Of a stretch of DNA of 57,978 nucleotides, positions 24,927-51,624 are shown one piece after another. The DNA comes from a virus (Duplodnaviria > Caudoviricetes): positions 1 through 57,978 of IMG/VR virus record IMGVR_UViG_3300025832_000009; one strand, written 5' to 3'. Numbering within the stretch: position 1 is the first letter of the stretch; each line of letters begins with the position of its first letter. The notes beneath the pieces were generated by a model. It was given only the letters and a program-made list of their open reading frames with translations, made no database searches and was not told the origin of the DNA. A program made the position numbers and the translations under genes.

Positions 24927-27900
24927 TTAAAAAGATTTAGGATTAAACGATTTTCCACTTTTCTTTTTTCCTTTCTCATTACCAAAAGAAGCTGGTGAAA
25001 AAGATTTATCATTTTTACTTTTGCTATTTGTTTTTTCAACTTTACGATCCTTACCTTGATCTATTCTTTTTAGTTGCTTTGCTTCATTATCTATCATTTT
25101 TTGAGAAGGATTTTTAATACCTCTCTGATTTAGTACAGCTTCAGCTTCTACAATATAATCAACTTTCTCTTCTATTTCTCTTGATTTACCTATATCCTTA
25201 AAAGCTCTTTCAGCAATATATCCTACTTCACTTGAATTTAAAACAGGGACACCAATTAAATGCATAGCATAAGCCATAGTCGTCATTTTCAAGGCGTTTA
25301 ATTTTTCAGGGTCTATTTCAGCTTTACTTTCTCTACCCATAAAAACAGTGGTCTTTTCTCCTGTAACAATTGTTTTAATCATATCAGCAAGTATTACTGC
25401 TTTTTTTGCACCGATTCCTAATGTACCTAGTTGGTCAATTATTTTTTTATCTGTCTTTGCAAAGAACTGAAATGGATTATCCTCATCGTCTTGAAACATA
25501 GACATCAATCCGTTTATTTTATTTAAACTTTCGTCATTTAAAATAGGTATTGGAACAAGAATATCTGCTAATGCATTTCCAGTTCTACCTATTAACCTTT
25601 GATTAAACTCTTTCTCTCTTTTTTCTTCTCTTGCTCTTTTATTAGCATATCTGTTTAAATTCGGGTCTTCTTCTTCTCCTGATATTAATCTTGCGGCAGC
25701 AGCTAATGTTTGAGTTATTCCTAAACCAATAGCATTAAACATTGCTGTTTCTACACCTAAACCTCCCAATGACCTAAGCGCTCTAGTCTTATCACCTGGA
25801 AGAGCAGTTGGGTTATTAGTTAAAGTATTTATATCTGAATACATTCTTGTTTTTTGATTTAACAAAAAGTTTGCAAAAGGAAATAATGTTTTACGAACCA
25901 TTTGAGAACCAAAGTTTTGATTAGTAAACAAGTCTCCTTGAAGGTCTTGGTCAGATGTATTTTGTTGCCTATCCACTTGTTGCTGTGCATACTGTGCAGC
26001 TTTTTTGTCTAATGGTTTAGACCAATCAATATTAGTAGTATCTCCTCCATCTTTTTTTACTTGCTGAATATAATAAGCAATAAAAGAAGCTCTTGCTGTC
26101 TGAACATCTGGATACACCAAGAAAGCTTCAAGTGTCTTTTTATTTATTTTATCAGCAGCATCAATTACTCTACCTCCTTTTGTCTGTGCTTTCTTTTTAA
26201 TTCTACTATCAGCATTTTCAATATCTGATTGAGATTGTATTCCCCTGTTAGCAATAGGTAAGCCTGAATTGTCTATAGCCTTTTGAACCTCAGCATCAAA
26301 AATTAACTTAGATCCTTTTAATGTATTGCTGAGACCTGCATTAAACATTGTGTTAAAAATAGGAACTATTTGTTTTACAAACTGAGTTGGCCCACCTAAA
26401 ACTCTAGACACACCTAATGTAGCAACCTTATTCAAACGATTTAAAGCTCTTTTTGTTGAACCATCAACATATTTTTTACCTCGTTTAGAATCTACATAGC
26501 TATTTATTCTTTCATTAATTATTTCTTTTGCTGATTCATTTGTAAAAACTTCGTTAAAAGCTTTTGACTCTCTAGCTCCTTTCACTTGTTGTATAGAAGG
26601 GGCTGTATATATATCAGTTAAAGCAGCTTTATAATTACTCATATTCTGAGCATCAAAACTTAAGTTTAATACATCTCCTGTCTCAAGAGAACCAGGTTTA
26701 GTAGCTTCTTTTAAAACACCTGTTTTTTTGTCGTAAGCGCTTTTTCTTTTATTTCCTTCAGGATTAAAAACAGGTTGTGTTATATCTACATCTTCTGCTT
26801 TTGGTTGCTTTACTTTTTGAATGTTTCTAGGAGTATAGTTAGTATCTTTTCCTAAATTCTTGTTATATACATTCAAGGACGTATCAGCTAATTCATTATA
26901 TTTTTTAGCCCAGATTTCCGTAACATATTTTACTCCATCTAAATTTGCAGGGTCTGCTTTACTTTCAACGTCCTCTATAGAGTTAGAGTCTTTCAAAAGC
27001 TTATCATATTGAGCTTTAACAATCTCACCTTTTTTAACTTTTAACTTGTCTCCTGAAGCCATAAGTCTCTCATAAGTTTGCTGAATAAGTTTCTTACTCT
27101 TTTCAAATTCCTTTTGTTCTTTCCCTGGTGTAAACCTCCTTACATCTGCTAATATACCTCTTTGAGTATCATTGGATTCGTCAAAGTATATACCATCTTG
27201 CATTTTCTTTTTTGCAAATTTATCTGCATAATCTTTCTCTGTATTAGCTGCTTCTTTTTGAGCTTTTGCGCTACCGTTTATTATTCCATCAAGCCCTAAA
27301 GCCTCCATAACCATTCTCGCCTTCTGTTGAGACTTAAATGTAAGTTCAAAGACATTAGGTAAAGTGGATATTTGTTTATTCCAAAACTTACCTAAGCCAA
27401 ATAATGATTTGTTTTCAGTATTTTTAATTCCTTTATTTTTTAAACGAGTTATTTTAGTATTACCAACTTGCTGCATTAGAGAAGCCTCCATTCCACCCGT
27501 AGATTGGTTAAGCTCAAAATTAACTATCGAATCTAATGCTTCCAATTTTTGCTTGGTAGTCATTAGACTTAAGTCCATGTTTAAAAAATTATTGATTAAA
27601 GTTTTTTGAGTCTTGGTAACCTTTATGTCTCCAGACTCTATAGCTCCTTTTATATTTATCTTAGTGTTTTTAAAAGCGTTATTTGCTGCTTTATCAATTG
27701 CGTTCTTTTTATCCTTAAGAATCTGTGCATCTGTTTCAGAAGTATTTGTTGAACCATCTACCTCATACAGTATCTCTTTCATTTGGTCAAGAGTTAAGTC
27801 CCCTGGTTCTAGCCCTGTCAATTCTTGAAATGACTCTTTGGCTAACTCATAGTTTCTTTCTGATTCTAATTCAGTTTCTTTTTTTGAATACTCCTCAATT

Positions 27901-30900
27901 TTTTTAATATCAAAAGGCTTACTTACTTTAAGTTCCCCCTTAGATGGTTTCTTAGTTGGTGTAAGACCATTACTAATTTCAGATGCTTTTTCTAAATATG
28001 TATCAATATCGTTTACATTGCTTGGATTTACTTGAGTAAATTTCTTTGCAGCGTCAGACAGTCCAGCTTCTTTACCTTTTAATTTATTCTTAATAGATTT
28101 TTGAAGTTTTTTAGCCTTATCTAGCTTATTAGAATACTCAGCATCATTCATTGCTCTTGTAGTAAAATCTATTACGTCTTGAACTTTCTTGGCGTTATAT
28201 AAATTTACATTAGAAACTTTTTTAAGTAATGAGTTTGCTTTTTTAGTTGTAATATTACCTGCTTTCAGAACTAAATCTATAGCCCCCTGTAATCCTTTTC
28301 TTCTTTTGTTTACATCGTTTTTAGCATTTCTAGCAACCCTAGCTTCCTTCTGAAGATCTTTCTTCATTGCCGAATAGTCGCTCTTTACTTTAATAGTCTT
28401 AGGCTTTCCTTTTATTTTTGTAGAGGCTATTATAGATTTATAAGTATTAGCTGTTACTGTCTGACTGTTTGTCTTTCCTATAGCATCTACTTCAGCTTTA
28501 ACTGCTCCTTCAGATTTAGCGTACAAGTCTATTTCTGCATTTGAAAATTCCGTATCACCCCTAGCTATTTTTAAAGCTAAGGCTCTTTCTTTAGATTGTG
28601 TTTTGGGTTGTTGTTTTTTCTTTTGAGCAACCGCATTATCTATTGCTTCTTTATTTTCTGCGTAAAACTGAATAGCATCTTCAGAAAAAGATTCTTGATT
28701 TCCTCCTTCAACAATACGATTTGCAAATGACTCTATTTTATTGTTCACACTCATATCTCCCTCTGTTGAGGTAGGTTCTGTTAACTGTTCAACATCTGTC
28801 TGCGTAGTCGTGTCGCTAGGCTTATCGGTTTGCGTTTCACCTTCTTCGATTTGCGTGTCGGTAGTGACTTGCTCAACGTCTCCTTCTCCCACTTGTTGCA
28901 ATTCCACTTCGGAGTCTTTCCCTCCTTCTGTGCTTGTTGGAGCATCTGGTAGCACTTGCTCCTCTGTGCTTGGCTTTGAAATGGCATCTTTTCCTTTTTT
29001 AATTAATACTGGCAACTCTACATCAATAGTGTATGTTTTTTTTCCTCTCTTAGTTCCTTGTCTTTTTATTTTTACCTCAATACCTGGATAAGCTTTTTTT
29101 ATTTTTTCAACTTCAGCTTCAGCTTTAGCTTTATCATCAGTCTTAAAAGGATCATAAGCAGCTTGACCTTTCTCTTCTACAGATTGTTTTGTTGCATCAC
29201 TATATTTTGTGGTATTAGTAACAACGTTACCATCGGCATCGGTCTCTACATCTAAATTAGATTTATTGAAAGTCCTAAGTCCACCCTCAGAAATAGTAGT
29301 CGTTTCAACAACTCTTGCGCCATCAGGTAATGTAGCATCAGCAGATGTAATCATATTCTTAAACGCACCACCTGTAGACTCCATTTTTGCTGAAAACTTA
29401 TTTGTTGGCCTTCCGTTTTCATAAACCCTAACATATCCGACAAAGTTTTCTTTGTTTTTAGAAGTTATAATAACATCTAAAATACCTGTCTCTGGATTTA
29501 CATAAGTTGCTGTTGATACCCCTTCTTTATCAAGACTTGTAACGTTTGATATGTTTGCTTCTCCTTTAGGATTAGAGGGAGTTACTAACCTTTTGTCTGT
29601 ATGATATTCTCTAAGTCGGTCTTTTGGAACTTGCTTTTCTGTGCTTGGCTTTGAAATGGCATCTTCTTTTTGTTTTGTTAATTCTTCTTGAACTTGTAAT
29701 TCGTCTTTTTTATATAGAGCATCTAGTTGCTGGTCAACAGCCGCTATCTGTTTATCAATTCTAGCTTTACCTGGGCCTTCTAGTCCCTGTTTTTTGTTTA
29801 TTAAATTCTGTCTTTGAGTTAATAAATCAGATGCAGGTTGTAAGTTTTCAGAAACTTTTATAGTCCCTTGAGTTTTTAACTCAGCTGACTGCATATTGTA
29901 AATTTCTGTATATGCATTTGAAGCCTCTTTTTCAGTCAAAGAACCTTCTTTAACTAAAACATCTAATGTAGATTGTAAATCTTTAACATTTGCTGCTGCA
30001 AGCCTAACTAAGTTAGACCTTCTATTTCCTGACAATAAATTTTTAGCACCCAAACCAGAGGTAGCTCCTACGGTCATTACTACAGTTTCCATTATACCTG
30101 CCTTTGTAATTTTGTCACTTAAAACTTCGTTTCCAATATGTCTATTCACCAAATGGTTTATACCCTTTTCAGAAAAATAAACTGGAAGCTCTTCTATAAA
30201 AAGTTCTTTAGCGTTTTCTTTTAACAAACCCTTGCCCTTATCTACAAGTTGTTTTACTGTGAATTTTTTACCTTCTTTTAATGCTAGGTTTTTAATCTGG
30301 TCTTTAATTCCTGTAAAACCTGTTAGTAATTTTTGATTACCACCTGCTAATCCAGAGAATATACCATCTAAAGTAGATATTGCCTGACCTGCATTAACAG
30401 CTATATTCATAGCTTCTTTTTCAGACATACCTGAAGCTACTAGCTGAGACCTTACGTCCTCCACGTTCCCTGTAATACCACTTGCAAAAGAAGTAATTCC
30501 CATTCCTAGACCAGCTCCTTTAGGGCCTTTAAATCCTAGTTTCTTTGTTACTTTTCCTGATGTTCTAATTAAGCCGTATAAGTGTACAAGCATGCCTACT
30601 CCTCCTTGAGTTACAGATCCTGCTGTCCAATTAGTTACAGTCTCTGTAACATCTTTAGATAGTGTTTGTATTTCTTTTATTTTTTCAGGAGAAATAATCC
30701 CATCCATTCTTATGTTCGTATTTGCATCATATACTGTTCCATTTTCATCAACAATATATTGTTTACCCATACTTAAAACTGGCTTTCCGTCTAAAAAAGC
30801 AGATCTTTTTACTGCGCCAGTTGTGATATCAAGAGTCTCCTTACTTTGGGTAAACATTTCTTCAAGGCTTTTTAAAACACCTTTATTATCAAATTTATCA

Positions 30901-32429
30901 TCTCCCTTCCCTATAGTTGCAATCCTTTGGTCAAAAAAAGCAGGTATAGAAGCGAAAAAATCAAGACCAAAACCAGCCAAACTATTTCCTGCAACAGCAA
31001 GTAACTCAACTAATCCTTGACCTCCTTCAGCTGCTCCACCTTCCTGAGCGGCCTCATACATTGCTTTTCTTCTTCTTAAGTCAGTATCCTCTGTGTATTT
31101 TGTAAGCACAGGAAAATCTTTAATAGTAGTAGAAATGCTTTCAACTTTTGCGTAAAATTCTTTGGTTAATTCTTTTCCCTCATTTTTTAATTCTTTTATC
31201 TGTTTAGGGTCAGAGGTTAAATCTATTTTCGCTTGAATTTGATTTAATCTCTTACTAATTTGATTAAGTTGTGCCGTCTTGTATGATTGAACTTTTTCAT
31301 AATAATTTTTTTGTTCAAAGTACTCATCACCTTCATCATCTGTAAGAAGTTTCTTCATCCACTTGTATACACCAGTTTCGTTCCTAGTGTTTTTCTTTTC
31401 CCACTTTAAATAATCTGTTACATCACCACCATCATTTTTAATAAGGCTTGTTAAAAATGCGTTAGCATTTCCAACCTCTCCTTCATCAAGATCAACATCT
31501 GAGTAATTTGGAGTTTGAACATCTTGAGTTGCAATTTCGTATGTTTCAACGGCTTCTAATAATTCTGGGCTAAGTTCTGATTCTTTCTTAAATTCTTTTT
31601 GACCTGTTTCTGGATTAATAAATCCATATTCTTTTTCTGGTGTGACATTTACGTTTATACCTTCTTTATCAAAATCAATAGTGTTTAAAACATTTCCTGA
31701 GTTCTCTTCTTTATAAGCCAAATATCCTGAATCTAATAGCAGCTTGTTTTTTTTATTAGAATCATATGAAGGCTTCCAGCTTCCTTTTCCATATGCTAAT
31801 GCTGATTTTTCATCTTTACCAAACTCTATAACTTCACCTCTTTTCTTAGCTTCTTCATATACAGGCTCCCAGTTTTGTTTTGCCTCTTCAGACATGTCAA
31901 CAAAACTTCCATCTTCATTTTGAAATACTGTAGGGAATGAAAACCAATTACCTTGACCATCTGTTTCGGTCTTCATTTTATGAGTAGACACACTTCCGTC
32001 TTCATTTTTAAGTGTACCTGACCTAGACGGTGCTTCAGGAATTAAAGTTTCAATCTCTTCTTCTACGACAGGAAATTCAACAAATGGTGCTAAGTCACCA
32101 TTATCATCTTGCACTAAAGGTATTACAGCTACTTCATCTTGCTCTTCTAAAGAATCCGAAGAGCCAGGAGTTGTTTCCGTTTCTGTAATGGATTCCGTAA
32201 CTTCCTCTTGACCATCTGAAGGAGTATCGACTTGATTTTTTTTTTCAGCCCAAGCAGATGTAAATACATCAAGAGTGGTTTCTGAGCTTATTATTTTTTC
32301 GTCAACACCTTGCTTATATAGGGCTTCCTGTATAGAAGAGTCTGATTGAGAAAATTGCTCAAAGCTAGTTTCTTTACTTAACAATCCCTGTTCAATATAA
32401 CTTTCGTATAGAGCTTTTAATTTATCCAT
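24927..32429 (-). CDS. Very large internal virion/ejection protein (2500 aa, modular)
   Basis: Last of three helical genes after the tail module, typical podovirus position; no RNAP motif seen. Confidence 0.75.
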   Translation of the reverse strand: MDKLKALYESYIEQGLLSKETSFEQFSQSDSSIQEALYKQGVDEKIISSETTLDVFTSAWAEKKNQVDTPSDGQEEVTESITETETTPGSSDSLEEQDEVAVIPLVQDDNGDLAPFVEFPVVEEEIETLIPEAPSRSGTLKNEDGSVSTHKMKTETDGQGNWFSFPTVFQNEDGSFVDMSEEAKQNWEPVYEEAKKRGEVIEFGKDEKSALAYGKGSWKPSYDSNKKNKLLLDSGYLAYKEENSGNVLNTIDFDKEGINVNVTPEKEYGFINPETGQKEFKKESELSPELLEAVETYEIATQDVQTPNYSDVDLDEGEVGNANAFLTSLIKNDGGDVTDYLKWEKKNTRNETGVYKWMKKLLTDDEGDEYFEQKNYYEKVQSYKTAQLNQISKRLNQIQAKIDLTSDPKQIKELKNEGKELTKEFYAKVESISTTIKDFPVLTKYTEDTDLRRRKAMYEAAQEGGAAEGGQGLVELLAVAGNSLAGFGLDFFASIPAFFDQRIATIGKGDDKFDNKGVLKSLEEMFTQSKETLDITTGAVKRSAFLDGKPVLSMGKQYIVDENGTVYDANTNIRMDGIISPEKIKEIQTLSKDVTETVTNWTAGSVTQGGVGMLVHLYGLIRTSGKVTKKLGFKGPKGAGLGMGITSFASGITGNVEDVRSQLVASGMSEKEAMNIAVNAGQAISTLDGIFSGLAGGNQKLLTGFTGIKDQIKNLALKEGKKFTVKQLVDKGKGLLKENAKELFIEELPVYFSEKGINHLVNRHIGNEVLSDKITKAGIMETVVMTVGATSGLGAKNLLSGNRRSNLVRLAAANVKDLQSTLDVLVKEGSLTEKEASNAYTEIYNMQSAELKTQGTIKVSENLQPASDLLTQRQNLINKKQGLEGPGKARIDKQIAAVDQQLDALYKKDELQVQEELTKQKEDAISKPSTEKQVPKDRLREYHTDKRLVTPSNPKGEANISNVTSLDKEGVSTATYVNPETGILDVIITSKNKENFVGYVRVYENGRPTNKFSAKMESTGGAFKNMITSADATLPDGARVVETTTISEGGLRTFNKSNLDVETDADGNVVTNTTKYSDATKQSVEEKGQAAYDPFKTDDKAKAEAEVEKIKKAYPGIEVKIKRQGTKRGKKTYTIDVELPVLIKKGKDAISKPSTEEQVLPDAPTSTEGGKDSEVELQQVGEGDVEQVTTDTQIEEGETQTDKPSDTTTQTDVEQLTEPTSTEGDMSVNNKIESFANRIVEGGNQESFSEDAIQFYAENKEAIDNAVAQKKKQQPKTQSKERALALKIARGDTEFSNAEIDLYAKSEGAVKAEVDAIGKTNSQTVTANTYKSIIASTKIKGKPKTIKVKSDYSAMKKDLQKEARVARNAKNDVNKRRKGLQGAIDLVLKAGNITTKKANSLLKKVSNVNLYNAKKVQDVIDFTTRAMNDAEYSNKLDKAKKLQKSIKNKLKGKEAGLSDAAKKFTQVNPSNVNDIDTYLEKASEISNGLTPTKKPSKGELKVSKPFDIKKIEEYSKKETELESERNYELAKESFQELTGLEPGDLTLDQMKEILYEVDGSTNTSETDAQILKDKKNAIDKAANNAFKNTKINIKGAIESGDIKVTKTQKTLINNFLNMDLSLMTTKQKLEALDSIVNFELNQSTGGMEASLMQQVGNTKITRLKNKGIKNTENKSLFGLGKFWNKQISTLPNVFELTFKSQQKARMVMEALGLDGIINGSAKAQKEAANTEKDYADKFAKKKMQDGIYFDESNDTQRGILADVRRFTPGKEQKEFEKSKKLIQQTYERLMASGDKLKVKKGEIVKAQYDKLLKDSNSIEDVESKADPANLDGVKYVTEIWAKKYNELADTSLNVYNKNLGKDTNYTPRNIQKVKQPKAEDVDITQPVFNPEGNKRKSAYDKKTGVLKEATKPGSLETGDVLNLSFDAQNMSNYKAALTDIYTAPSIQQVKGARESKAFNEVFTNESAKEIINERINSYVDSKRGKKYVDGSTKRALNRLNKVATLGVSRVLGGPTQFVKQIVPIFNTMFNAGLSNTLKGSKLIFDAEVQKAIDNSGLPIANRGIQSQSDIENADSRIKKKAQTKGGRVIDAADKINKKTLEAFLVYPDVQTARASFIAYYIQQVKKDGGDTTNIDWSKPLDKKAAQYAQQQVDRQQNTSDQDLQGDLFTNQNFGSQMVRKTLFPFANFLLNQKTRMYSDINTLTNNPTALPGDKTRALRSLGGLGVETAMFNAIGLGITQTLAAAARLISGEEEDPNLNRYANKRAREEKREKEFNQRLIGRTGNALADILVPIPILNDESLNKINGLMSMFQDDEDNPFQFFAKTDKKIIDQLGTLGIGAKKAVILADMIKTIVTGEKTTVFMGRESKAEIDPEKLNALKMTTMAYAMHLIGVPVLNSSEVGYIAERAFKDIGKSREIEEKVDYIVEAEAVLNQRGIKNPSQKMIDNEAKQLKRIDQGKDRKVEKTNSKSKNDKSFSPASFGNEKGKKKSGKSFNPKSF
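28740..28755 (+). repeat. Dispersed motif, copy 6 (inside 2500-aa gene)
   Basis: ATTGTTCACACTCATA. Confidence 0.8.
28781..28987 (-). CDS. Overprinted small basic protein MPFQSQAQR...KWEKET
   Basis: Alternative frame of the large gene; A-rich leader; resembles stand-alone MPFKSKAQR phage proteins. Confidence 0.55.
   Translation of the reverse strand: MPFQSQAQRSKCYQMLQQAQKEGKTPKWNCNKWEKETLSKSLPTRKSKKVKRKPISLATRLRRQMLNS
28954..29665. repeat. 37-bp direct repeat (28-bp identical core) flanking a 675-bp in-frame segment
   Basis: TCTGTGCTTGGCTTTGAAATGGCATCTT at 28963-28990 and 29638-29665. Confidence 0.85.
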
Positions 32430-44348: not shown

Positions 44349-45770
44349 CTAGTTTGTAAAGATAAAGAAGTTATTAGCACCTAAAGTACATAAAGCTCTC
44401 TCTGATAAGAAGTTTACTTCCATCGCATCTAAATCCGATGTAGCAGCTCCACCAGCTGAACCTGTAATCCAAGTTTTATAACGTCTGTCTTCAGTTTCTG
44501 AAGCTCTGTAACGAACGTGTAAGAATGGACGCTTTGCGTTCTTTCCTAATACTTGGTCATATACAGTAGTTGAACCTGCTGGTACTAAAACACCATTAAT
44601 TGCTCCACCTACGATATCTCCACGCATTGTCGGATCGTTTAGGTATTTCCAGTCTGTCTTGTAGAAATCATAACCTCTACGGAATCCTGTAAATCCTAAG
44701 TTCAAAGCCATCTCTTTGTCATTGTCAAAAAGACCATATGAAGTACCACCTGCTCCGTAAGAGTTTTGTGATGCTAACATATCATCAATATCAAATCCAA
44801 ATTCTCTGTTTAAGAAAATAACATTCTCTTCGATTGAACCTTGCTTATCTAAACGAGAGATAATAGCATCAAAATCTGCTAATGCAGCAGGGTTTCCACC
44901 TGACCATACATTTCCTCTGTTTTCGATAACATAAAACATTCCTTCAGAACCTTTGTTACCAACTCCAGTTGCTACACCTTCAACGATTGCCGCTGCTCCA
45001 CCATTCGCTTCAGCAGGAACTGCTTCAACCATTGCTGTTTCTAGGTAATCCTCAAAACGTAAACGAGTTTCGTGTTCTGATTTCATGTACCACAAGAATC
45101 CAGTTGCACCGTTTTCTGTAGTTACTTCAATCCATCCAATTTGAGCCATGTCAGAACCTGATACTGCGTAACGGTCTTTAATGATAATTGGAGAATTTTC
45201 AAAGATAGAATCATCAGCTTCTAGCTGTCCTTGCATACCAACAGATCCTTTCTGAAATTCAGAACCATAGATAAATAAAGAACATACAACTCCTGCTGCC
45301 ATTGTCTGACCTCCAGCTGCATAGTAAGCTACATCAATTGTACCTGCCGCTGTATCAACTGCTGTTACAATAGCTTTGTTGCTATTTGTAGAAGCCGCTG
45401 TGCTGTCAGATAACATAATTGTTTGTCCAACACGAATTGCGATAGAACCAGAACCTGGTACTAAAACATCTCCAATTGTTAATGTTGCTGTGTCAGCTGC
45501 TGCCGCTGCTCCTGAAGTTACGTTTGTATACTTCGTGTGTAGTCTTCCTTGTTCTGCCCATTTGATAAGGTCAGAGTTAGAAGGCATTTCAGCGCCTACC
45601 ATTCTTAAGAATGATGCTACTGTTCTGTTTCCATAACGTTCAAATTCTTTCTCATAAGTATCTGGAAGATACTGATTTAAGAAATCAAAGTTAGTAATAT
45701 AATTTGTCTGTAATAAGACTTGTTCTGAGCTTGGCTGTAAGTCAAACCCTGGTACTGCATCTACTGCCAT
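44349..45770 (-). CDS. Major capsid protein
   Basis: 473 aa after portal and scaffold; highly biased codons; followed by a terminator. Confidence 0.85.
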   Translation of the reverse strand: MAVDAVPGFDLQPSSEQVLLQTNYITNFDFLNQYLPDTYEKEFERYGNRTVASFLRMVGAEMPSNSDLIKWAEQGRLHTKYTNVTSGAAAAADTATLTIGDVLVPGSGSIAIRVGQTIMLSDSTAASTNSNKAIVTAVDTAAGTIDVAYYAAGGQTMAAGVVCSLFIYGSEFQKGSVGMQGQLEADDSIFENSPIIIKDRYAVSGSDMAQIGWIEVTTENGATGFLWYMKSEHETRLRFEDYLETAMVEAVPAEANGGAAAIVEGVATGVGNKGSEGMFYVIENRGNVWSGGNPAALADFDAIISRLDKQGSIEENVIFLNREFGFDIDDMLASQNSYGAGGTSYGLFDNDKEMALNLGFTGFRRGYDFYKTDWKYLNDPTMRGDIVGGAINGVLVPAGSTTVYDQVLGKNAKRPFLHVRYRASETEDRRYKTWITGSAGGAATSDLDAMEVNFLSERALCTLGANNFFIFTN

Positions 45771-45792: not shown

Positions 45793-46887
45793 TTATTTAT
45801 TTTTACTTCTTATTCTCAAACCTTTTCTACTTCCAGTATCAACCTGTCTTGCTTTAAATCCTGTGTCGCCTATTGATTGCGGAGTACTTCTTATGTTCAT
45901 GTTAACATTTTTACTTTTTTTAGAAATATCTCCAACACTATCGGCTTTACCTTGCTCATAAAAATATTTTGCAAAGCGGTCAGGATCCATCGCAGCACTA
46001 ATTGCTTTATGCCAACCTTTAGCATCTTTAATCAATCCATCATCTCCTAGGTATTTACCTATGAAATTATTTAGATCCATTTGTTTTGCCTTCATTTCCT
46101 GTGCATCTCCATAAGAATAACCTATCTTTTTATCTCCTATCTCGAACTCAAAACCTTTGAATTCAGAATTAAAAACATCGTTAGTTCGTTTCTCGAAATA
46201 CTCATTCTTTTTAAGATTAGCTTCTTGAACTGTCTTAGATTCTTGAATATAACTTTTATAAGCATCAAGTTCTTTTTTCATTTCTTCAGAAACAGCTTTC
46301 CCACTTGACTCAAGAGGAACACTATATTTTTCTTTAAAATCATTAAGATACTTTTTTGCCTTAGAAAGTTCTCTTTTTTTAGCTATATTTTTCTTTTTAA
46401 TCTCACCTTCATCATCTAAATCCTCATCATATGAAAATTTATCTTCAATTAAATAATGAATGTCATCATTATCTAAATCAGTTTCTGTTAAAGAATAATA
46501 CTCTGCTAACACTTGGTCTTCGTTTAAATTATCGTAATCCCTATTAGCTTTTACGAAGTCATTAAATCCACGACCAGTTTCTTTTTTAAAATTTAAATAT
46601 TTAGAAACATCTTCTGGTAATTCTTCGTTCATCTCTTTTTGAGTAAACAAATCATCTACAGATGATATATCCTTATTATATCTATTGTTAATATATGAAA
46701 GAACGTCTTCGTCCTTTATAGTTGGACCAACTTCAGCCTCTTCAGCTTGTGACACTTCTTCAACAGGTTCTTTATCTACTGACTCTTCAGCATTTAATTG
46801 TTGCTCATGTTTTTCTAAAAGTTGACTCTCTACTTCTTGAACCGATTTTGATTCTAAAGGATTTACTTCAGATACTTTAATTTCCAT
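45793..46887 (-). CDS. Capsid scaffolding protein
   Basis: Acidic coiled coil; FYEQGKAD; between portal and capsid; TAACTTTG box at 46904-46911. Confidence 0.7.
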   Translation of the reverse strand: MEIKVSEVNPLESKSVQEVESQLLEKHEQQLNAEESVDKEPVEEVSQAEEAEVGPTIKDEDVLSYINNRYNKDISSVDDLFTQKEMNEELPEDVSKYLNFKKETGRGFNDFVKANRDYDNLNEDQVLAEYYSLTETDLDNDDIHYLIEDKFSYDEDLDDEGEIKKKNIAKKRELSKAKKYLNDFKEKYSVPLESSGKAVSEEMKKELDAYKSYIQESKTVQEANLKKNEYFEKRTNDVFNSEFKGFEFEIGDKKIGYSYGDAQEMKAKQMDLNNFIGKYLGDDGLIKDAKGWHKAISAAMDPDRFAKYFYEQGKADSVGDISKKSKNVNMNIRSTPQSIGDTGFKARQVDTGSRKGLRIRSKNK

Positions 46888-46941: not shown

Positions 46942-49377
46942 TCACCTTGGCTCGAATTGAGCTAGGTCAAATCCATCTAAACTATCTTCAGAAGATTCAA
47001 AAGTAACAGGCGGTAAGTTATTTTTTCTTTGCTCTATTAGTTTTGATTGCTCTGTATTAGCTTGAGTTATTCTTTCTGACTTGGCTTTTTCGCGTTGTGT
47101 TTCTCTAGTTTTTAAACCTTCAACCTCAACACCTTTTAATTTCATGTTAAGATCAAACTCTAAGTTCATCAACTCAGCTTTTATTGCTGCCTCACCTTGC
47201 ATTCTTTTAACAGAGAATTGAGCCTTGGCCTCTTCTATTTGCATAGTGGCTTGAGTCTCCATCTGTATTTTTTGCATTGCAGTTTGCGCGGCCATTTGTT
47301 GAGACTGCATATTTATCTGTCCCTGTTGTTCAGCTGCTGCTGATTTTTGTTGCTGTTCTAAATCTTGTTTAGCTTTACGTTTAAGCTTTAATACTTGATT
47401 AGCTAATTTTATATTTCTTATTTCTCTAATATCAATAGCGTCCTCTAAGTTTATAGAATCTCTTTGAAGAGCCATTTGAATATTAGCTTCCAACATTCTT
47501 TTTTCTTCTTCGTCTGGAACTATTTCTATAAAGATTCCAAAATCACTTAAGTATAAATCTTTAATCTCCTCTATTAGACCAACATTAAATTTACCTATTT
47601 GATTTACAAATTCTTCTTTAAAGTCAGAATACTGAAGCATATCTGCAATTCTACTAGACAATGCTGTACATAGTCTTTGTGACATATGAAGACTCGCATC
47701 TAATATATGTCTTGTTGCAGTGTTACTGCTTAAAGCTGCTAACTTTTGTAATCCAACTAATGCATAAGAATCTGGAGTAGCTCCATCTCTAGCTTCATTT
47801 AGACCAGTTACATCTCTAAGCATTGATAAGTAGTGATTGTAACTACCTATAAGACTTTGAATTTTTGCTTGACCAGAATTACTATTTAATTGTTGAATAG
47901 GAATTTTAGCTTGATTGTAATCTCCATCTTGAGTGTAACTTCTACCAATAACACTACCCGTTTGAAAAAACATTCTTAATGCATCTTCAGGATTATATGC
48001 TTGACCTGTTCCAAGATCTACTTCACTTAATCCATCAGCATCAATATATACACCATCTGGTACGACTCTAGATATTACTTGCTGTAACTTTAAGTGTGTA
48101 ATCTGTATTAAATCAGCAAAGGTTATCATTCTTCTAACCAAAGATTCTAAAGCTCCTTTATACATTCTTGGAGCAGAAGCTACAAACTCTGGATATACTT
48201 CTTGAGATGCTGATTGTGGTCTAGCCATGTTTTCTGACATTTCCCATTTAAGCAAAATGTTAGTACCCATAACCATAACACCCTCATACCAAACATCAAT
48301 AGTTTTAGAAATTTTTTCAAAGTTCCCTTCATCCATCATTTCTTCTGTAGGATTAAAAGTATCATCTTTTTCAATTACTCTTTCAGCTCCTGCTGCATTC
48401 ACTTTCTTTTTGTAGGTAAATGTTTTGGTGGTTTTATAGTTAAAAAACAAAACAGTACAACTGTCTTTGCTAAACAAACTATTATTATAATATTGAGCTG
48501 TATTGTTGTAGTCATACCAGCTTTGTGAATAATTAGATATCTCTTCCATATCAGCCCTAGTTAAGCTAGGGTCAATCTTCATCAACTCAATAATTGGTAG
48601 TGTTTTAATTTCACCCCAGTAGAAACAATCTTGAAAATTAGGGTCTTCAGTATAACTGTAAACTACACTAGCAGGGTCAACATACTCTACTTTTATTCCA
48701 GCTCCAGGCTGAAAACTATTTTTACATATTTGTATTCCTAAAACAGTTTGATCGTAATATAATCTTTTTTGTATTTCATTATATCTATTTTCTGCCAATA
48801 CAGTATTAACAGCTTCTTCTTCAGCTATTTCTATTGAAGGCTTATATTTCATTTGCATATGAAGCGCCAGTTCTTCTGAAGTATTTGGAACTTCTTCTTC
48901 AGACATAGCAAAAGTGTTTACACCAAACTGCTCTTGAACCTGCTTCATCATGTCTTTAGCAAGCATATCTTTTTCTAGATTTACTTGATACTTACTTCTT
49001 TTATCCAAAGACATTCCGTCCTGAGCATACGCGTTTACAGTAAACACCCTGTCTGCCATACCGTTAACTACAATATCAACAAACTTAGGAATAATAGGTA
49101 CAGGTGTCCAGTCTAAGTTAAGATAACTTAAATCTCCATCTACAGCTAGTTCATTCTTGTACTTCTGAATAGACTGTTCTCCTCTAGCATAAAGTCTTAA
49201 TCTATGGAAATCAGCCCATTGATTATAGAACCTACTTTGACCACCATCTTTTCTAAACCATTCGTATTGAATAGCTTGACCTATTTGTAATCCAAATTCA
49301 AAAGACTTTTTTTCTGCGTCAGAAACAAATTGACTAGGGAATCCTGTAGGATTAATATTTACTTTTACGTCCTTCAT
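46942..49377 (-). CDS. Portal protein
   Basis: 811 aa after terminase; PIIPKFVDIV, TGLNEARDG; Q-rich C-terminal barrel. Confidence 0.88.
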   Translation of the reverse strand: MKDVKVNINPTGFPSQFVSDAEKKSFEFGLQIGQAIQYEWFRKDGGQSRFYNQWADFHRLRLYARGEQSIQKYKNELAVDGDLSYLNLDWTPVPIIPKFVDIVVNGMADRVFTVNAYAQDGMSLDKRSKYQVNLEKDMLAKDMMKQVQEQFGVNTFAMSEEEVPNTSEELALHMQMKYKPSIEIAEEEAVNTVLAENRYNEIQKRLYYDQTVLGIQICKNSFQPGAGIKVEYVDPASVVYSYTEDPNFQDCFYWGEIKTLPIIELMKIDPSLTRADMEEISNYSQSWYDYNNTAQYYNNSLFSKDSCTVLFFNYKTTKTFTYKKKVNAAGAERVIEKDDTFNPTEEMMDEGNFEKISKTIDVWYEGVMVMGTNILLKWEMSENMARPQSASQEVYPEFVASAPRMYKGALESLVRRMITFADLIQITHLKLQQVISRVVPDGVYIDADGLSEVDLGTGQAYNPEDALRMFFQTGSVIGRSYTQDGDYNQAKIPIQQLNSNSGQAKIQSLIGSYNHYLSMLRDVTGLNEARDGATPDSYALVGLQKLAALSSNTATRHILDASLHMSQRLCTALSSRIADMLQYSDFKEEFVNQIGKFNVGLIEEIKDLYLSDFGIFIEIVPDEEEKRMLEANIQMALQRDSINLEDAIDIREIRNIKLANQVLKLKRKAKQDLEQQQKSAAAEQQGQINMQSQQMAAQTAMQKIQMETQATMQIEEAKAQFSVKRMQGEAAIKAELMNLEFDLNMKLKGVEVEGLKTRETQREKAKSERITQANTEQSKLIEQRKNNLPPVTFESSEDSLDGFDLAQFEPR

Positions 49378-51624
49378 TTATCTTAAAATTTGGCTGTAAC
49401 TTCCATTATTATCATATTTAGCAAAGTTAAGTTTTATTTTTGATTTCTTTTTTAAAGGTTGATATAGTGTTTTTTGACAAGCCATTATAGCTAATCCAGA
49501 GCTAATTGAAGCATCAAACTTAGTTCTATTGTTTATATTGAATCTAGCCCAGTCTTCTAGAGTCCTTGTGAAATACATAGAGCCTATTGCATCAGGATCT
49601 CTGTAAGTTCCTTGCATATCAAATCCTACATGCTTTTCTATGTAAGACTCTATTGCTGCTGCGTGAGCCTGCTTTATGTCTTCAGAACTGTTAGGCATCC
49701 CACCTAATTCCTTTTCTGTTACAGATAGTTTATTATATGGTTTATCAGGTCTATTAATACTATATTTTCTATACCCTCTATTTTTAAAATGATATAATAA
49801 CCTAGGTTTGTTATTTTCTATAAGTATGGGCATTCCATAAAAAACACAAGCCATTAATACATCTTCAAAAAACATTTCTGCCGTTTGAGGTCTAGCCACA
49901 TATTCTAGAAAAAACTCGTTAACAGGCCCTTCATCCATATGAAACTTTGTTAGTCCATGTAACGCCCCATTAGAAGCGCCACCACCAACAGTACCTGATA
50001 TATCGTAACTATCACAACCAAAAGCCCCCATGTGTTCATTACCAGGAAGTTTTAGTCCGTTTCTTGTATTGTAATTATTCTGTAGCTGTTTGTTTGGAGT
50101 CCAAGATATTAAAAACCTTCCTTTTTGATTAGGGCTAAATATAACCTGAGTATCTTTTACACCATCTTTCCATGAAAAAGAACCTCTTGTTAAAAACCTG
50201 TCTTTTATTAAAGAATCGTTATAATCTATTTGCTGATATATCTTAGTTAAATTAAATAATGATTGCTTACTCTCATCTCTAAACGCATGAGATTCAGTTC
50301 TTGGAAACTGTCTATAAAATTCGTTTAATGCATCAGGGTCATTTTTTAAACTATCTACTTCAGCCTCCCAATAATCAACTGCACCTTGTGTTATATATTC
50401 TCCATCTATTCCTATTATTGGATTTTTTGGAGTTCTAAATACAGGCATTCCATATCTATCTATAAAACCTTCCATGTTATATTCCATTGGAATAAACAAA
50501 CTATACAAACCACTCTTAGTTTGTCCATTACGGTTTCTGTTATTGACTTTAGAATCAAAGTATAATTTCTTACCATTGTCCCCACCTTTTTCTAATGCAT
50601 TAGCAGTAGAACCCATCATACATTTTCCAATAACTTTGCTACCTAAACGCAAACACGTTTTTGTAACCCTCCAGTTATTTAAAATATTATTTGGCTTCTC
50701 CCATTTCTTAGATTCATCATGAATCAATAGCTTTAATTTTTCCCCATCATAACTGTTATCCCCTGTATTTTTCCAGTCAATAGAAGTGTCTAGTCCCTCA
50801 ACAATGGTTTCGTCTTCCTCATACATATTTTTTTTAGTAATCTTAGAAGCAGGAACTCTAAACGCTAGTTCTGTCTTAGGCTTATCCATACCGTCTTGTA
50901 CGGGTTTAAAAAAGAAAGGGTAATTATTTACAATTGGAACAACTTTATCTGTAAACATTTTTTTAGCATCAGCTCCTGTCTTAGACAAAATACCTATCCT
51001 AGCATCTTTACTTATTGTTCCTATGTTACTAGCCTCTTCACTAGCCATATAAGAAAATCCTGAACGCCTTATCTTTAAATAGTCTTGACCAAAACTTCGT
51101 TTATCTGCTTTGCATGCTTCCCAGTGTAAATAAAATACTCTGTTAGCATCTCTGTATTCTGGAAGCCCAACATCTATTTTAGTCCATTGAATATACATAT
51201 AATGAGATCCTGTGATATATGTAGGAACACCATTATTCATGAACCAAAATCCATCTTCTCTTCTGTCGAATTCCTGTTCAATGTAATCTACCCATTCATT
51301 CTTAAAAGATAATGATGTGTTATGCCATTGAAATATAGATTTAATTTTATGCAATACTTTGGGGTAGTCAAAAGGTTCCCAGTATTGTTCTTTCTTTTCT
51401 TTGCTTCTTGAATGTATTTTTTCAGGAGGCTTTGGCAGTCCTATTTTTAAGCCTTCAATTTCAACTATGTCTTGAATCTGACCAGTCTTTGATATAACTA
51501 TAAAGTCATACTTTTCATTATAACCATAAACCCAGGCCTTACCTTTGTTTTTAGTGGTTATAACACTTTTAGGAATAAAATTATTTAATTCCTTAATTAA
51601 GCTATGTTGCTCTTCCTTCTGCAA
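49378..51624 (-). CDS. terL: Terminase large subunit
   Basis: KIRRSGFS Walker A variant, LIHDE Walker B, GST, nuclease GCDSYD, ENN, FDA. Confidence 0.92.
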   Translation of the reverse strand: MQKEEQHSLIKELNNFIPKSVITTKNKGKAWVYGYNEKYDFIVISKTGQIQDIVEIEGLKIGLPKPPEKIHSRSKEKKEQYWEPFDYPKVLHKIKSIFQWHNTSLSFKNEWVDYIEQEFDRREDGFWFMNNGVPTYITGSHYMYIQWTKIDVGLPEYRDANRVFYLHWEACKADKRSFGQDYLKIRRSGFSYMASEEASNIGTISKDARIGILSKTGADAKKMFTDKVVPIVNNYPFFFKPVQDGMDKPKTELAFRVPASKITKKNMYEEDETIVEGLDTSIDWKNTGDNSYDGEKLKLLIHDESKKWEKPNNILNNWRVTKTCLRLGSKVIGKCMMGSTANALEKGGDNGKKLYFDSKVNNRNRNGQTKSGLYSLFIPMEYNMEGFIDRYGMPVFRTPKNPIIGIDGEYITQGAVDYWEAEVDSLKNDPDALNEFYRQFPRTESHAFRDESKQSLFNLTKIYQQIDYNDSLIKDRFLTRGSFSWKDGVKDTQVIFSPNQKGRFLISWTPNKQLQNNYNTRNGLKLPGNEHMGAFGCDSYDISGTVGGGASNGALHGLTKFHMDEGPVNEFFLEYVARPQTAEMFFEDVLMACVFYGMPILIENNKPRLLYHFKNRGYRKYSINRPDKPYNKLSVTEKELGGMPNSSEDIKQAHAAAIESYIEKHVGFDMQGTYRDPDAIGSMYFTRTLEDWARFNINNRTKFDASISSGLAIMACQKTLYQPLKKKSKIKLNFAKYDNNGSYSQILR

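Follow-up and report, generated by a model that had tools for sequence, protein, structure and literature searches.

The 57,978-nucleotide stretch of viral DNA analysed here (IMG/VR record IMGVR_UViG_3300025832_000009; Caudoviricetes), referred to as the window, carries a giant gene with a second, small ORF nested inside it on the same strand (Table 1). The nested ORF lies in the +1 frame of its host, at an offset of 3442 nt from the host start, and encodes a hydrophilic, basic peptide of 68 aa (pI 10.91, 18 K+R against 3 D+E), which begins MPFQSQAQ and has no hydrophobic N-terminal stretch. Helices are predicted at residues 6-22, 30-37 and 57-67 (AlphaFold model, pLDDT 86.5). In the host frame the same nucleotides read as an acidic, low-complexity linker (about aa 1148-1216; DAISKPSTEEQVLP...LQQVGEGD..., pI 4.05, 19 D+E against 3 K+R), and the sequence 5' of the nested ATG is A-rich (TTAATTAAAAAAGGAAAAG). 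An earlier note on this DNA had described the basic alternative-frame ORF of 68 aa, its A-rich leader and the acidic linker, all of which stand; the end it gave, 28990, falls three bases beyond the ATG at 28987. It had also called the 2500-aa ORF an ejection protein, a label that we do not retain, since the giant protein has no match in Pfam, PHROG, NCBIfam or, by sequence, the PDB.

Table 1. Features of the window discussed in the text
Feature	Position	Strand	Remarks
Nested small gene	28781..28987	(-)	ATG 28987-28985, 68 codons, stop 28783-28781; listed ORF
Host gene, 2500-aa ORF, end of structural module	24927..32429	(-)	Homologous giants in relatives
Putative translation-initiation region of nested gene	28988..29017	(-)	A-rich, almost unstructured
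~200-aa giant-protein segment between both cassette 5' copies	29022..29618	(-)	About aa 938-1136
Shortened duplicate of cassette 5' end, upstream	29585..29662	(-)	Profile match
Scaffold-like gene (context only)	45793..46887	(-)	Between portal gene and capsid-like gene

The neighbours of the nested gene are structural genes. The shortened duplicate of its 5' end has a first ~12 codons nearly identical to the cassette and runs for 25 aa, then two stops; it matches the family profile at positions 1-16 only (E 0.005), and its host frame reads DAISKPSTEKQV at aa 923. Comparable stubs are present in loci L001, L003 and L245. The ~200-aa segment between the two 5' copies is missing from L246, L247 and L250, as seen when the giants of relatives are compared with that of the window by blastp: alignment of these three giants with the window's protein stops at aa 937 in their upstream halves and resumes at aa 1137-1142 in their downstream halves. 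The segment is therefore an insertion, with the duplication on its flanks, and after its insertion into the cassette 5' end a full copy of the small gene was kept downstream. The scaffold-like gene of the window has no cassette, whereas the same gene carries a nested ORF in most related phages; no copy of the peptide was found within +-3 kb in the 80 loci most like the window's scaffold-like gene.

Taken by itself, in the window alone, the nested ORF is not significant against chance. The longest +1-frame open stretch in the giant gene is the one that holds it (73 codons, the next being 49 codons). When the giant host gene was subjected to synonymous-codon shuffles, 123 of 5000 trials retained both the open spot and its ATG, and 180 of 1000 produced, at any place in the giant gene, a +1-frame ORF that begins with ATG and is 68 aa or longer. 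It is comparative data that point to a status beyond chance for the nested ORF.

The nested peptide belongs to an unnamed family, here the MPFKS N-terminal-module family, which is defined by alignments A3 and A5 and has the pattern MPFKS..Q...W.KET..LP followed by a basic tail. The earlier note had pointed to stand-alone phage proteins of the MPFKSKAQR type, and such a family does exist, with 1823 clusters of 22-125 aa at E<=1e-3, 4918 representative clusters and, as a named case, gp48 of Streptomyces phage FlowerPower. The window peptide matches the family profile over positions 1-49 (E 3.4e-19) and has the start pattern at residue 1 (M-P-F/I/L, then x-S/N-x-x-Q), the Trp, the KET/LP and the basic tail by which members are recognised. 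As the alignments show, a module of ~45 aa that appears always to be N-terminal comprises an invariant MPF start, K-S-x-x-Q, an amphipathic helix, W.KET/LP and a K/R-rich tail. Among 78 aligned sequences M1, P2 and Q8 are invariant and F3 and W33 are each conserved in at least 90%, and the match starts at residue 1 in about 140 of the 150 top-ranked representatives. Stand-alone copies occur in phage contigs and in FlowerPower, where the gene sits between genes annotated 'peptidase' and 'holin', and Prochlorococcus phage P-RSP2 has an unannotated copy among short ORFs annotated as hypothetical proteins. Three long 'members' of 90% clusters (P0124, P0170 and P0172) were discarded as their sequences are unrelated, and two apparent in-frame fusions to scaffold-like text (P0003 and P0008) have premature ends in which assembly frameshifts are suspected, and were not used as evidence of fusion.

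No significant match in Pfam, PHROGs or NCBIfam was found for the window peptide or for its stand-alone relatives. A weak match of eight aligned members to Choline_sulf_C (best E 1.2e-4) was treated as noise. By sequence, the PDB gave for the nested peptide just E 0.66-1.4 over a stretch of 16 residues, and Foldseek of the peptide model against the PDB gave nothing at E<=0.001. A structure search of BFVD returned uncharacterised proteins only (best E 2.2e-3), and the protein atlas solely viral clusters of 'hypothetical protein', all with scores <0.9. A literature search on motif strings and DUF6321 found no relevant paper; the sole phage match, in PMC12919940, is an unrelated C-terminal string, and a term search of PMC7077304, on Baltic Flavobacterium phages, gave no mention of these phages or of their proteomics.

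Among many Flavobacteriia-type podophages the peptide is nested, in the +1 frame, either within giant genes or within a scaffold-like gene of ~400 aa, and it is also found as a stand-alone gene. Nor is it bound to the giant gene: in most relatives the host is the ~400-aa scaffold-like gene that follows the portal gene. A first collection of loci (80 contigs and 2 phage records) was picked by the peptide profile itself and is hence biased; in it an ATG ORF of 41-71 aa (122 aa in L039) is present in all 80 contigs and both phage records, 81 of these copies being complete. Our conclusions lean instead on sets of loci selected by the host gene. Where loci were chosen solely by the C-terminal domain of the scaffold-like host, a +1-frame MP[FIL].. 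ORF of 36-56 aa was found in 68/80, and the cassette is absent from the other 12, one of which is cut at the contig end. Stops in close homologues were looked for as the finding that would count against the gene, and none occurs where the region is present: of 11 evaluable relatives with a giant gene, 10 have the nested ORF intact and the eleventh is without any cassette; some of these relatives are only 45-77% identical in the flanking protein. Strongly diverged subfamilies likewise retain the nested ORF, its length and the family pattern. The cassette-less homologues, together with Cellulophaga phages phi38:1 and phi13:2 and Tenacibaculum phage Gundel_1, in which no match to the peptide was found, show that the nested gene is dispensable or replaceable. 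The peptide search matched 68 Flavobacterium phage records, and the nested ORF is unannotated in both public phage records whose annotation was checked. No match to public phages was obtained by blastn of the region, nor to public phage records by tblastn of two stand-alone peptides at E<=1e-3.

The pattern of substitution follows the small frame. Across 23 independent pairs drawn from the host-selected loci, codon positions 1/2/3 of the small ORF have 84/72/192 differences (chi-square p 4e-17), and downstream of the cassette the same pairs have normal host periodicity (1152/765/2262; protein-guided control). Amino acids differ at 12.1% of positions in the small-ORF frame; the figures are 26.6% for the host frame and 24.0% for the unused one. 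Comparison of substitution counts in the overlap and downstream puts host third-position divergence at about 0.08 per site within the overlap, where the value outside is 0.33. Among the 9 unique sequences of the class to which the window belongs, the minimum changes are 33/23/46 (p 0.02), and the small ORF has an amino-acid identity of 0.78, compared with 0.68 in the host frame and 0.67 in the unused one; the signal in this 68-aa class is modest because the sequences are closely related. These counts show that selection acts on the small ORF itself.

The host frame is kept open nonetheless. T is found at 0/1126 positions where it would create a host-frame stop and at 152/1663 elsewhere, and host-frame stops are avoided through the exclusion of T before Lys/Arg codons. 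In stand-alone copies the host-equivalent frame contains 1-19 stops, and in cassette-less homologues the same N-terminus goes directly into the linker. The host ORF is thus evidently also read through the cassette, where the comparisons show its amino-acid sequence to be unconstrained, in an acidic, disordered linker. The pairing of a basic peptide with an acidic linker follows from the genetic code, as AAR and AGR codons are read one base earlier as GAA, CAA, GAG and GGA. Purifying selection in an alternative frame, together with a host frame that is kept open, is the mark of an overprinted gene, and both were found here. The dual-coding region proposed in the earlier note is borne out in this respect, and the nested ORF of the window very likely encodes a real protein, as a gene overprinted on the 2500-aa structural gene in its +1 frame.

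The start of the nested gene also has features of its own. The window leader has A at -3, -11, -12 and -13 and G at -6, and the region from -30 to +30 around the ATG has an MFE of -0.9 kcal/mol; only 1% of 109 other +1-frame ATGs in the giant gene are as open. At the nested starts of relatives, the frequency of A at -3, -6, -11, -12 and -13 is 0.82-0.97, compared with 0.29-0.57 at control ATGs (n = 1171). A at these positions is reported as a positive determinant of initiation for F. johnsoniae in PMC6847099. All portal relatives with a named host (86/86) are phages of Flavobacteriia. The AUG sits in an unstructured, A-rich leader whose adenines occupy positions that favour initiation in the Shine-Dalgarno-independent Bacteroidia, and relatives of the window's phage infect Flavobacteriia; on these grounds the nested peptide would be made by independent initiation of the Bacteroidia type at an internal AUG on the structural-gene mRNA.

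Other readings of the open frame have to be weighed against this. The small ORF could be a by-product. Conservation would then belong to a motif of the host frame (DA[IV]QxxST..) or to an element in the DNA or RNA, for example a signal for recombination or packaging, and the biased composition of the acidic linker would leave the +1 frame free of stops. Equally long +1 ORFs did arise in the shuffles of the window's gene, the motif occurs twice in the giant protein, and a mosaic junction coincides with the cassette start. However, the host frame is no better conserved in the overlap than the unused one, substitutions peak at the third positions of the +1 frame, and ORF, length and family pattern persist in diverged subfamilies; moreover, thousands of stand-alone and N-terminal homologues are called as proteins, and in stand-alone copies stops interrupt the host-equivalent frame. 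This reading has already been largely refuted, and we regard it as extremely improbable. Programmed ribosomal frameshifting from the host frame, which would yield a host protein cut short and ending in a basic tail, and no free small protein, is used in phage structural genes such as T7 10A/10B and lambda G/GT, and the nested ORF does lie within a translated gene on the same strand. Against it, the +1 frame is closed by in-frame stops 0-28 codons before the ATG, the complete copies recovered with the peptide profile all begin with ATG, conservation starts at the Met, stand-alone and N-terminally fused homologues begin at the same MPF, and the nested ATG has a strong Bacteroidia-type context in an unstructured window. 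A frameshift product would have no start of its own; an ATG heads every complete copy compared here, and we hold frameshifting to be very improbable.

The nested ORF might also be a silent relic, a free-standing gene that was swallowed when neighbours fused into the giant ORF and that is intact, and unexpressed, since its capture was recent. Close peptides are indeed stand-alone after the giant stop in some loci and nested in others, the selection signal of the giant-nested class reaches just p 0.02, and decay of cassette pieces does occur, as the truncated duplicate shows. The ORF is nevertheless intact in nearly all evaluable giant relatives, including those with strongly diverged flanks, a complete copy was kept downstream after the ~200-aa insertion, and the window start is among the most open 1% of the giant gene's +1-frame ATGs. 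We consider a relic improbable, and an expressed, overprinted gene remains our preferred reading.

The cassette and its surroundings appear to have separate histories. Between L024 (scaffold host) and L055 (giant host), successive stretches from the ATG to about +115 have 27, 26, 26 and 21 of 30 bases identical, as against just 6-14 of 30 in the flanks on both sides. Identity between the window and L251 is about 0.33 upstream of the ATG and 0.99-1.0 over 300 nt from the ATG. Closely related peptides stand alone right after the giant-ORF stop in two loci (L033 and L078), and three others (L042, L044 and L077) have them nested. On the peptide tree at least 9 location changes are needed, compared with 28.5 on average, and never fewer than 24, for shuffled labels, counts that are approximate as the tree has 133 rows and about 45 columns. 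The cassette may therefore be portable, the same small gene with its own start and stop occupying a giant, a scaffold-like or a free-standing place according to lineage. Its lysine-rich codons, read one base earlier as an acidic spacer, would explain why it is tolerated in disordered linkers. A fuller version of this idea holds that the MPFKS cassette is a self-contained gene-within-gene that has moved at least about six times among unrelated structural genes, and also to or from a free-standing state, being tolerated wherever a disordered linker is acceptable; that its conserved 5' end also serves as a short homology patch for exchanging or inserting modules of the giant virion protein; and that the encoded peptide acts as a targeting or anchoring module, obligately N-terminal, which brings a basic tail, or a fused cargo where it heads longer proteins, into the assembling capsid. 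As a whole we hold this version to be doubtful.

The functional proposal is the weakest step of the explanation, with no structural or family match behind it. From the charge of the peptide and its fixed place in the packaging/head module within this phage group, we tentatively suggest a polyanion-binding accessory of head assembly or of the virion interior, which could bind packaged DNA or acidic surfaces of scaffold or portal; we find this possible, somewhat short of probable. The role of packaging partner to the giant protein, which the earlier note put forward, is at most conjectural. Outside this phage group the family is found in contexts other than head modules.

Tiny phage genomes offer well-known cases of overprinted genes, which are rarely documented in tailed dsDNA phages. 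Gene callers are blind to them, and current annotations miss the nested gene, which is hidden and yet retained in about 85% of host-selected relatives. The signature of selection changes reading frame sharply at the cassette, the same cassette sits within non-homologous host genes, and the nested gene belongs to a nameless family that comprises thousands of phage proteins, either small or N-terminally tagged. It offers a testable case of how the gene for a basic protein may be carried within an acidic linker, and a concrete, likewise testable, case of internal initiation in the Shine-Dalgarno-independent Bacteroidia. Elemovirus on Flavobacterium sp. BAL314 provides a cultured system in which this widespread module can be studied, the phage having a nested copy of about 42 codons at NC_055853.1 52379-52507.

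Among described families, we took that of the nested peptide to resemble phrog_1375 and Pfam DUF3008, both without known function. Three longer family members weakly match phrog_1375 over the N-terminal module (E 1.6e-6 to 8.9e-6), and the window peptide has no match to it at E<=10. DUF3008 (PF11450) is found on 10% of the members of one atlas neighbour cluster; the window peptide does not match it at E<=10, nor do 9 and 78 relatives at E<=1, and the Pfam gathering score that marks DUF3008 membership was not reached.

In lambda Rz/Rz1 the o-spanin gene is embedded in the +1 frame of the i-spanin gene. There too a small gene with its own start codon lies wholly within a larger same-strand phage gene in the +1 frame, and other phages show free-standing or overlapped arrangements. 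However, Rz1 is a secreted lipoprotein with a signal sequence and a lipobox cysteine, which belongs to a lysis cassette and acts with the product of its host gene, whereas the nested peptide lies in structural genes, its host gene varies by lineage, and the features of an embedded spanin (signal sequence, lipobox cysteine, lysis cassette) are not those found here. In its product the nested gene also resembles J of phiX174, a small, highly basic, virion-internal DNA-binding protein: both are about 40-70 aa long with an extreme positive charge and a K/R-rich tail, and in this phage group the gene lies among head/packaging genes, a likeness of charge and neighbourhood. The two have no sequence or fold relationship, and J has nothing that corresponds to the conserved helical N-terminal module. 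Among the overlapping genes of the Microviridae, phiX174 gene E lies within the scaffolding gene D; like the nested gene in its most common host, it is an overprinted +1-frame gene in a scaffolding-type gene and constrains the synonymous sites of that host. E is a membrane-targeted lysis protein that is restricted to its lineage and was born de novo within D. The nested peptide, in contrast, comes from a very large family that is also free-standing, and its gene therefore looks to have existed already and to have been placed in host ORFs rather than born there.

The nested ORF in the window, which encodes a peptide of 68 residues, starts 3442 nt from the start of the giant ORF and therefore lies in its +1 frame. 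The peptide is strongly basic (pI 10.91; 18 K+R versus 3 D+E), while the giant-ORF frame across it is acidic (pI 4.05; 19 D+E versus 3 K+R), and the bases upstream of the nested ATG are A-rich. An earlier note had described the ORF, the basic peptide, the acidic host frame and the A-rich leader as they are found here, but had placed the end coordinate three bases too far. Its label of 'ejection protein' for the giant ORF was a guess from position, as the ORF has no match in Pfam, PHROG, NCBIfam or, by sequence, the PDB. The nested stretch is the longest open +1-frame stretch of the giant gene (73 codons; the runner-up has 49). When the giant gene was shuffled synonymously, this spot was open with an ATG in 123 of 5000 trials, and 180 of 1000 trials produced a +1-frame ATG ORF of at least 68 aa at some place in the gene. 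Taken alone, the window thus holds a nested ORF that is statistically unremarkable.

Features of the window bearing on the nested ORF and its cassette (the small-ORF DNA from its own ATG)
Feature	Position	Strand	Remark
Nested ORF, ATG start, 68 aa	28781..28987	-	ORF listing of window
Giant host ORF, 2500 aa, encloses nested ORF	24927..32429	-	ORF listing
Duplicate of cassette 5' end, first ~12 codons, truncated (stub)	29585-29662	-	675 nt upstream of intact gene
~200-aa giant-protein segment, about aa 938-1136	29022-29618	-	between stub and intact small gene
Large terminase	49378-51624	-	head and packaging module
Portal	46942-49377	-	head and packaging module
364-aa acidic protein, phrog_16786 (unknown function)	45793-46887	-	usual scaffolding-gene position
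Capsid-like virion protein	44349-45770	-	then further virion proteins, giant ORF at module end

The window, an IMG/VR virus record, is estimated to be 96% complete, and its head and packaging module lies on the minus strand. Of 87 portal relatives in the phage collection, one is uncultured and the other 86 come from phages infecting Flavobacterium, Cellulophaga, Tenacibaculum or Maribacter, which makes a host from the Flavobacteriia very probable. In locus L024 (L024:382-993), phi38:1 (gp089) and phi13:2 (gp096), all flavobacterial podophages, the large terminase gene is directly preceded by one for a GroES-like co-chaperonin.

A tblastn search of public phages with the peptide matched 72 records, 68 of them Flavobacterium phages. 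In Elemovirus NC_055853.1 (L001; 52379-52507) and MW202828.1 (L002; 9593-9724) the copy is unannotated and shows the same pattern, a complete ORF of 42-43 aa in the +1 frame of a giant CDS annotated 'structural protein' or 'reticulocyte binding/rhoptry protein'. A peptide-profile search of IMG/VR gave at least 80 loci, each with an ATG ORF of 41-71 aa (one of 122 aa); 1 of 80 ORFs was cut by a contig end. Three arrangements occur. The small ORF may sit within a giant ORF of about 2000-3300 aa, or be nested about 45-80 codons into a ~400-aa scaffold-like ORF between portal and capsid-like genes (gene order mapped in L024), a homologue of the window's 364-aa protein (32-37% identity). It may also be free-standing, in four settings: immediately after the giant-ORF stop (L033, L078), between large terminase and portal (L037-type, L082), or following a major head protein (L062) or a portal-like protein (L065). 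Every nested copy occupies the +1 frame of its host, the third frame being closed. Across all sets, with some contigs counted twice, 123 loci are scaffold-hosted, 26 giant-hosted and 10 free-standing.

Because this first locus set had been picked by the peptide itself, loci were re-sampled by host protein only. With the C-terminal domain alone of the cassette-bearing scaffold type as query, the peptide profile was matched in 57 of 80 loci, always nested and always +1, and a +1-frame MP[FIL].. ORF of 36-56 aa was present in 68. These 68 include subfamilies just 21-31% identical to the window peptide, which retain the start, length, helix pattern and basic tail. The remaining 12 loci (one truncated) have no cassette, and their N-terminus, MSE..K.DLSK, continues straight into the acidic linker; the host ORF therefore begins before the cassette and, where there is one, reads across it. 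A second alignment query, whose first sequence was the window's own cassette-less scaffold-like protein, gave 80 best loci, in all of which the peptide profile was unmatched within +-3 kb. This fits the window, whose cassette sits in the giant gene instead. Among giant-gene relatives picked by the 471-aa stretch downstream of the cassette, the +1 ORF is intact in 10 of 11 evaluable loci and two more loci are without the region; the cassette is missing from L255, a relative at 31% identity. Of the scaffold-like homologues, about one in seven is cassette-less (L173, L178, L194, L199, L207, L217, L224, L232, L238, L240 and L175), keeping the same N-terminus and acidic linker; in L175, host-frame EDAV.. 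together with an unrelated +1 ORF may be what is left of a decayed cassette.

Selection in the overlap was assessed in 23 phylogenetically independent pairs from the cassette-type scaffold set. Differences at small-ORF codon positions 1/2/3 (host positions 2/3/1) numbered 84/72/192 (p 4e-17), and those at host codon positions 1/2/3 in the host-only part downstream numbered 1152/765/2262. Synonymous-site constraint, which the earlier note had proposed as a check, is borne out by a host third-position divergence per site of about 0.08 within the overlap versus 0.33 outside. Amino-acid differences in the overlap amount to 12.1% in the small ORF, 26.6% in the host frame and 24.0% in the unused frame, a pattern indicating that constraint acts on the small ORF. 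In the close-knit giant-gene class the signal is weaker but points the same way: 33/23/46 minimum changes at small-ORF positions 1/2/3 (p 0.02), with identity of 0.78 in the small ORF and 0.68 and 0.67 in the other frames.

The host frame also bears a mark of the overlap. A T at a small-ORF third position before AA, AG or GA would create a host-frame stop, and T occurs at 0 of 1126 such positions versus 152 of 1663 elsewhere; G is favoured there, giving host-frame Glu or Gly. Free-standing copies have 1-19 stops in the equivalent frame, so the open host frame of nested copies is maintained, not automatic. Over the nested copies the peptides are 29% K+R, and the host-frame reading is 29% D+E and 37% Q/T/S/G/P/N; the acidic spacer arises because lysine-rich codons are read one base earlier.

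The nested start has features of its own. A at -3, -6, -11, -12 and -13 has frequencies of 0.83, 0.85, 0.97, 0.82 and 0.89 at nested ATGs of the host-selected set, versus 0.36, 0.47, 0.37, 0.57 and 0.29 at 1171 other +1-frame ATGs of the same host genes; the window's start has A at -3, -11, -12 and -13 and G at -6. A study of Flavobacterium johnsoniae, a species that initiates without Shine-Dalgarno pairing, reports that A at -3, -6, -12 and -13 promotes initiation, which mRNA structure tunes as well (Baez et al. 2019, PMC6847099). Folding of -30..+30 averages -1.98 kcal/mol at nested starts versus -7.44 at controls (p 1e-36). At -0.9 kcal/mol, the window's start is matched in openness by just 1% of 109 other +1-frame ATGs in the giant gene. 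The +1 frame could instead be entered by frameshifting from the host frame, but +1-frame stops lie 0-28 codons upstream of the nested ATG and homologues share the same Met start, for which reasons internal initiation is favoured. The peptide would then be made by independent initiation at the internal ATG, and we consider it likely that the nested ORF is a real, selected and independently initiated gene.

The cassette also behaves as a unit. Between L024 (scaffold host) and L055 (giant host), 27, 26, 26 and 21 of 30 bases are identical in successive stretches from the ATG to about +115, versus just 6-14 of 30 in the flanks on both sides. Nucleotide identity between the window and L251 is about 0.33, a random level, upstream of the ATG, 0.99-1.0 over the next 300 nt, and then decays; the mosaic junction coincides with the nested ATG (window 28987, L251:3756). 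Their peptides are identical, whereas just 53% of the residues compared in the flanking giant protein agree. The conserved cassette may be a recombination joint for module exchange. An approximate maximum-likelihood tree (133 peptide-location rows, about 45 columns) requires at least 9 location changes, including 6 switches between giant and scaffold hosts, versus a mean of 28.5 (minimum 24) with shuffled labels. Within the window's giant gene, the ~200-aa segment resembles an inserted domain bordered by a short duplication, since it is missing from relatives L246, L247 and L250 and lies between two cassette copies. The giant gene was remodelled at the cassette, with the complete small gene nonetheless retained. 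Comparable truncated stubs are seen in L001, L003 and L245.

The wider family comprises 1823 clusters of 22-125 aa at E<=1e-3, all named just 'hypothetical protein', and 562 longer proteins. An exhaustive profile search gave 4918 representative clusters, and in about 140 of the best 150 of these the match starts at residue 1. In longer members the module (the family's N-terminal ~45 aa, MPFKS) stands at the extreme N-terminus, heading proteins of 165-980 aa (P0180, P0191, P0267 and others), and is followed by unrelated, often low-complexity sequence; several end in DUF6321 (PF19846). The module's nearly constant placement at residue 1 suggests a role requiring a free N-terminus. One longer member has a ParB-like stretch and one an RNA-ligase-like stretch. 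In P0003 and P0008 an MPFK peptide runs into scaffold-like text in one frame and then ends early, which may reflect natural fusion or a frameshift in the assembly. When 53 family proteins were scanned against PHROG (the 72-aa FlowerPower gp48 and 52 longer forms), 46 had no match at E<=1e-5, and 3 weakly matched phrog_1375 (unknown function) across the module. The AlphaFold model of the peptide, built with an alignment of 78 members, has high confidence (pLDDT 86.5) and shows helices at 6-22, 30-37 and 57-67; no similar entry was found in PDB or BFVD. From its charge and neighbourhood, the peptide might tentatively be seen as an accessory protein that binds polyanions, acting in head assembly or inside the capsid. 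The family's varied contexts call for caution, as members also occur in cultured phages of unrelated hosts: Streptomyces phage FlowerPower gp48 (L258:5001-5219) is a free-standing member with a Lys/Ala-rich tail and neighbours annotated 'peptidase' and 'holin', and Prochlorococcus phage P-RSP2 has an unannotated free-standing copy (L259:5001-5120) among short hypothetical-protein ORFs, so the family extends beyond head modules.

No description of the motif or of the nested arrangement was found in the searchable literature, supplementary files and subscription journals lying outside this scope. Genes within genes are familiar from phages, lambda Rz1 lying inside Rz and phiX174 E inside D, and the small ORF resembles these in its arrangement. 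However, the peptide has none of their defining features, namely a signal sequence, lipobox, membrane segment or lysis context. It is also unlike de novo overprinting, because the nested gene's family exists free-standing as well, and the gene is found in non-homologous host genes with sharp boundaries.
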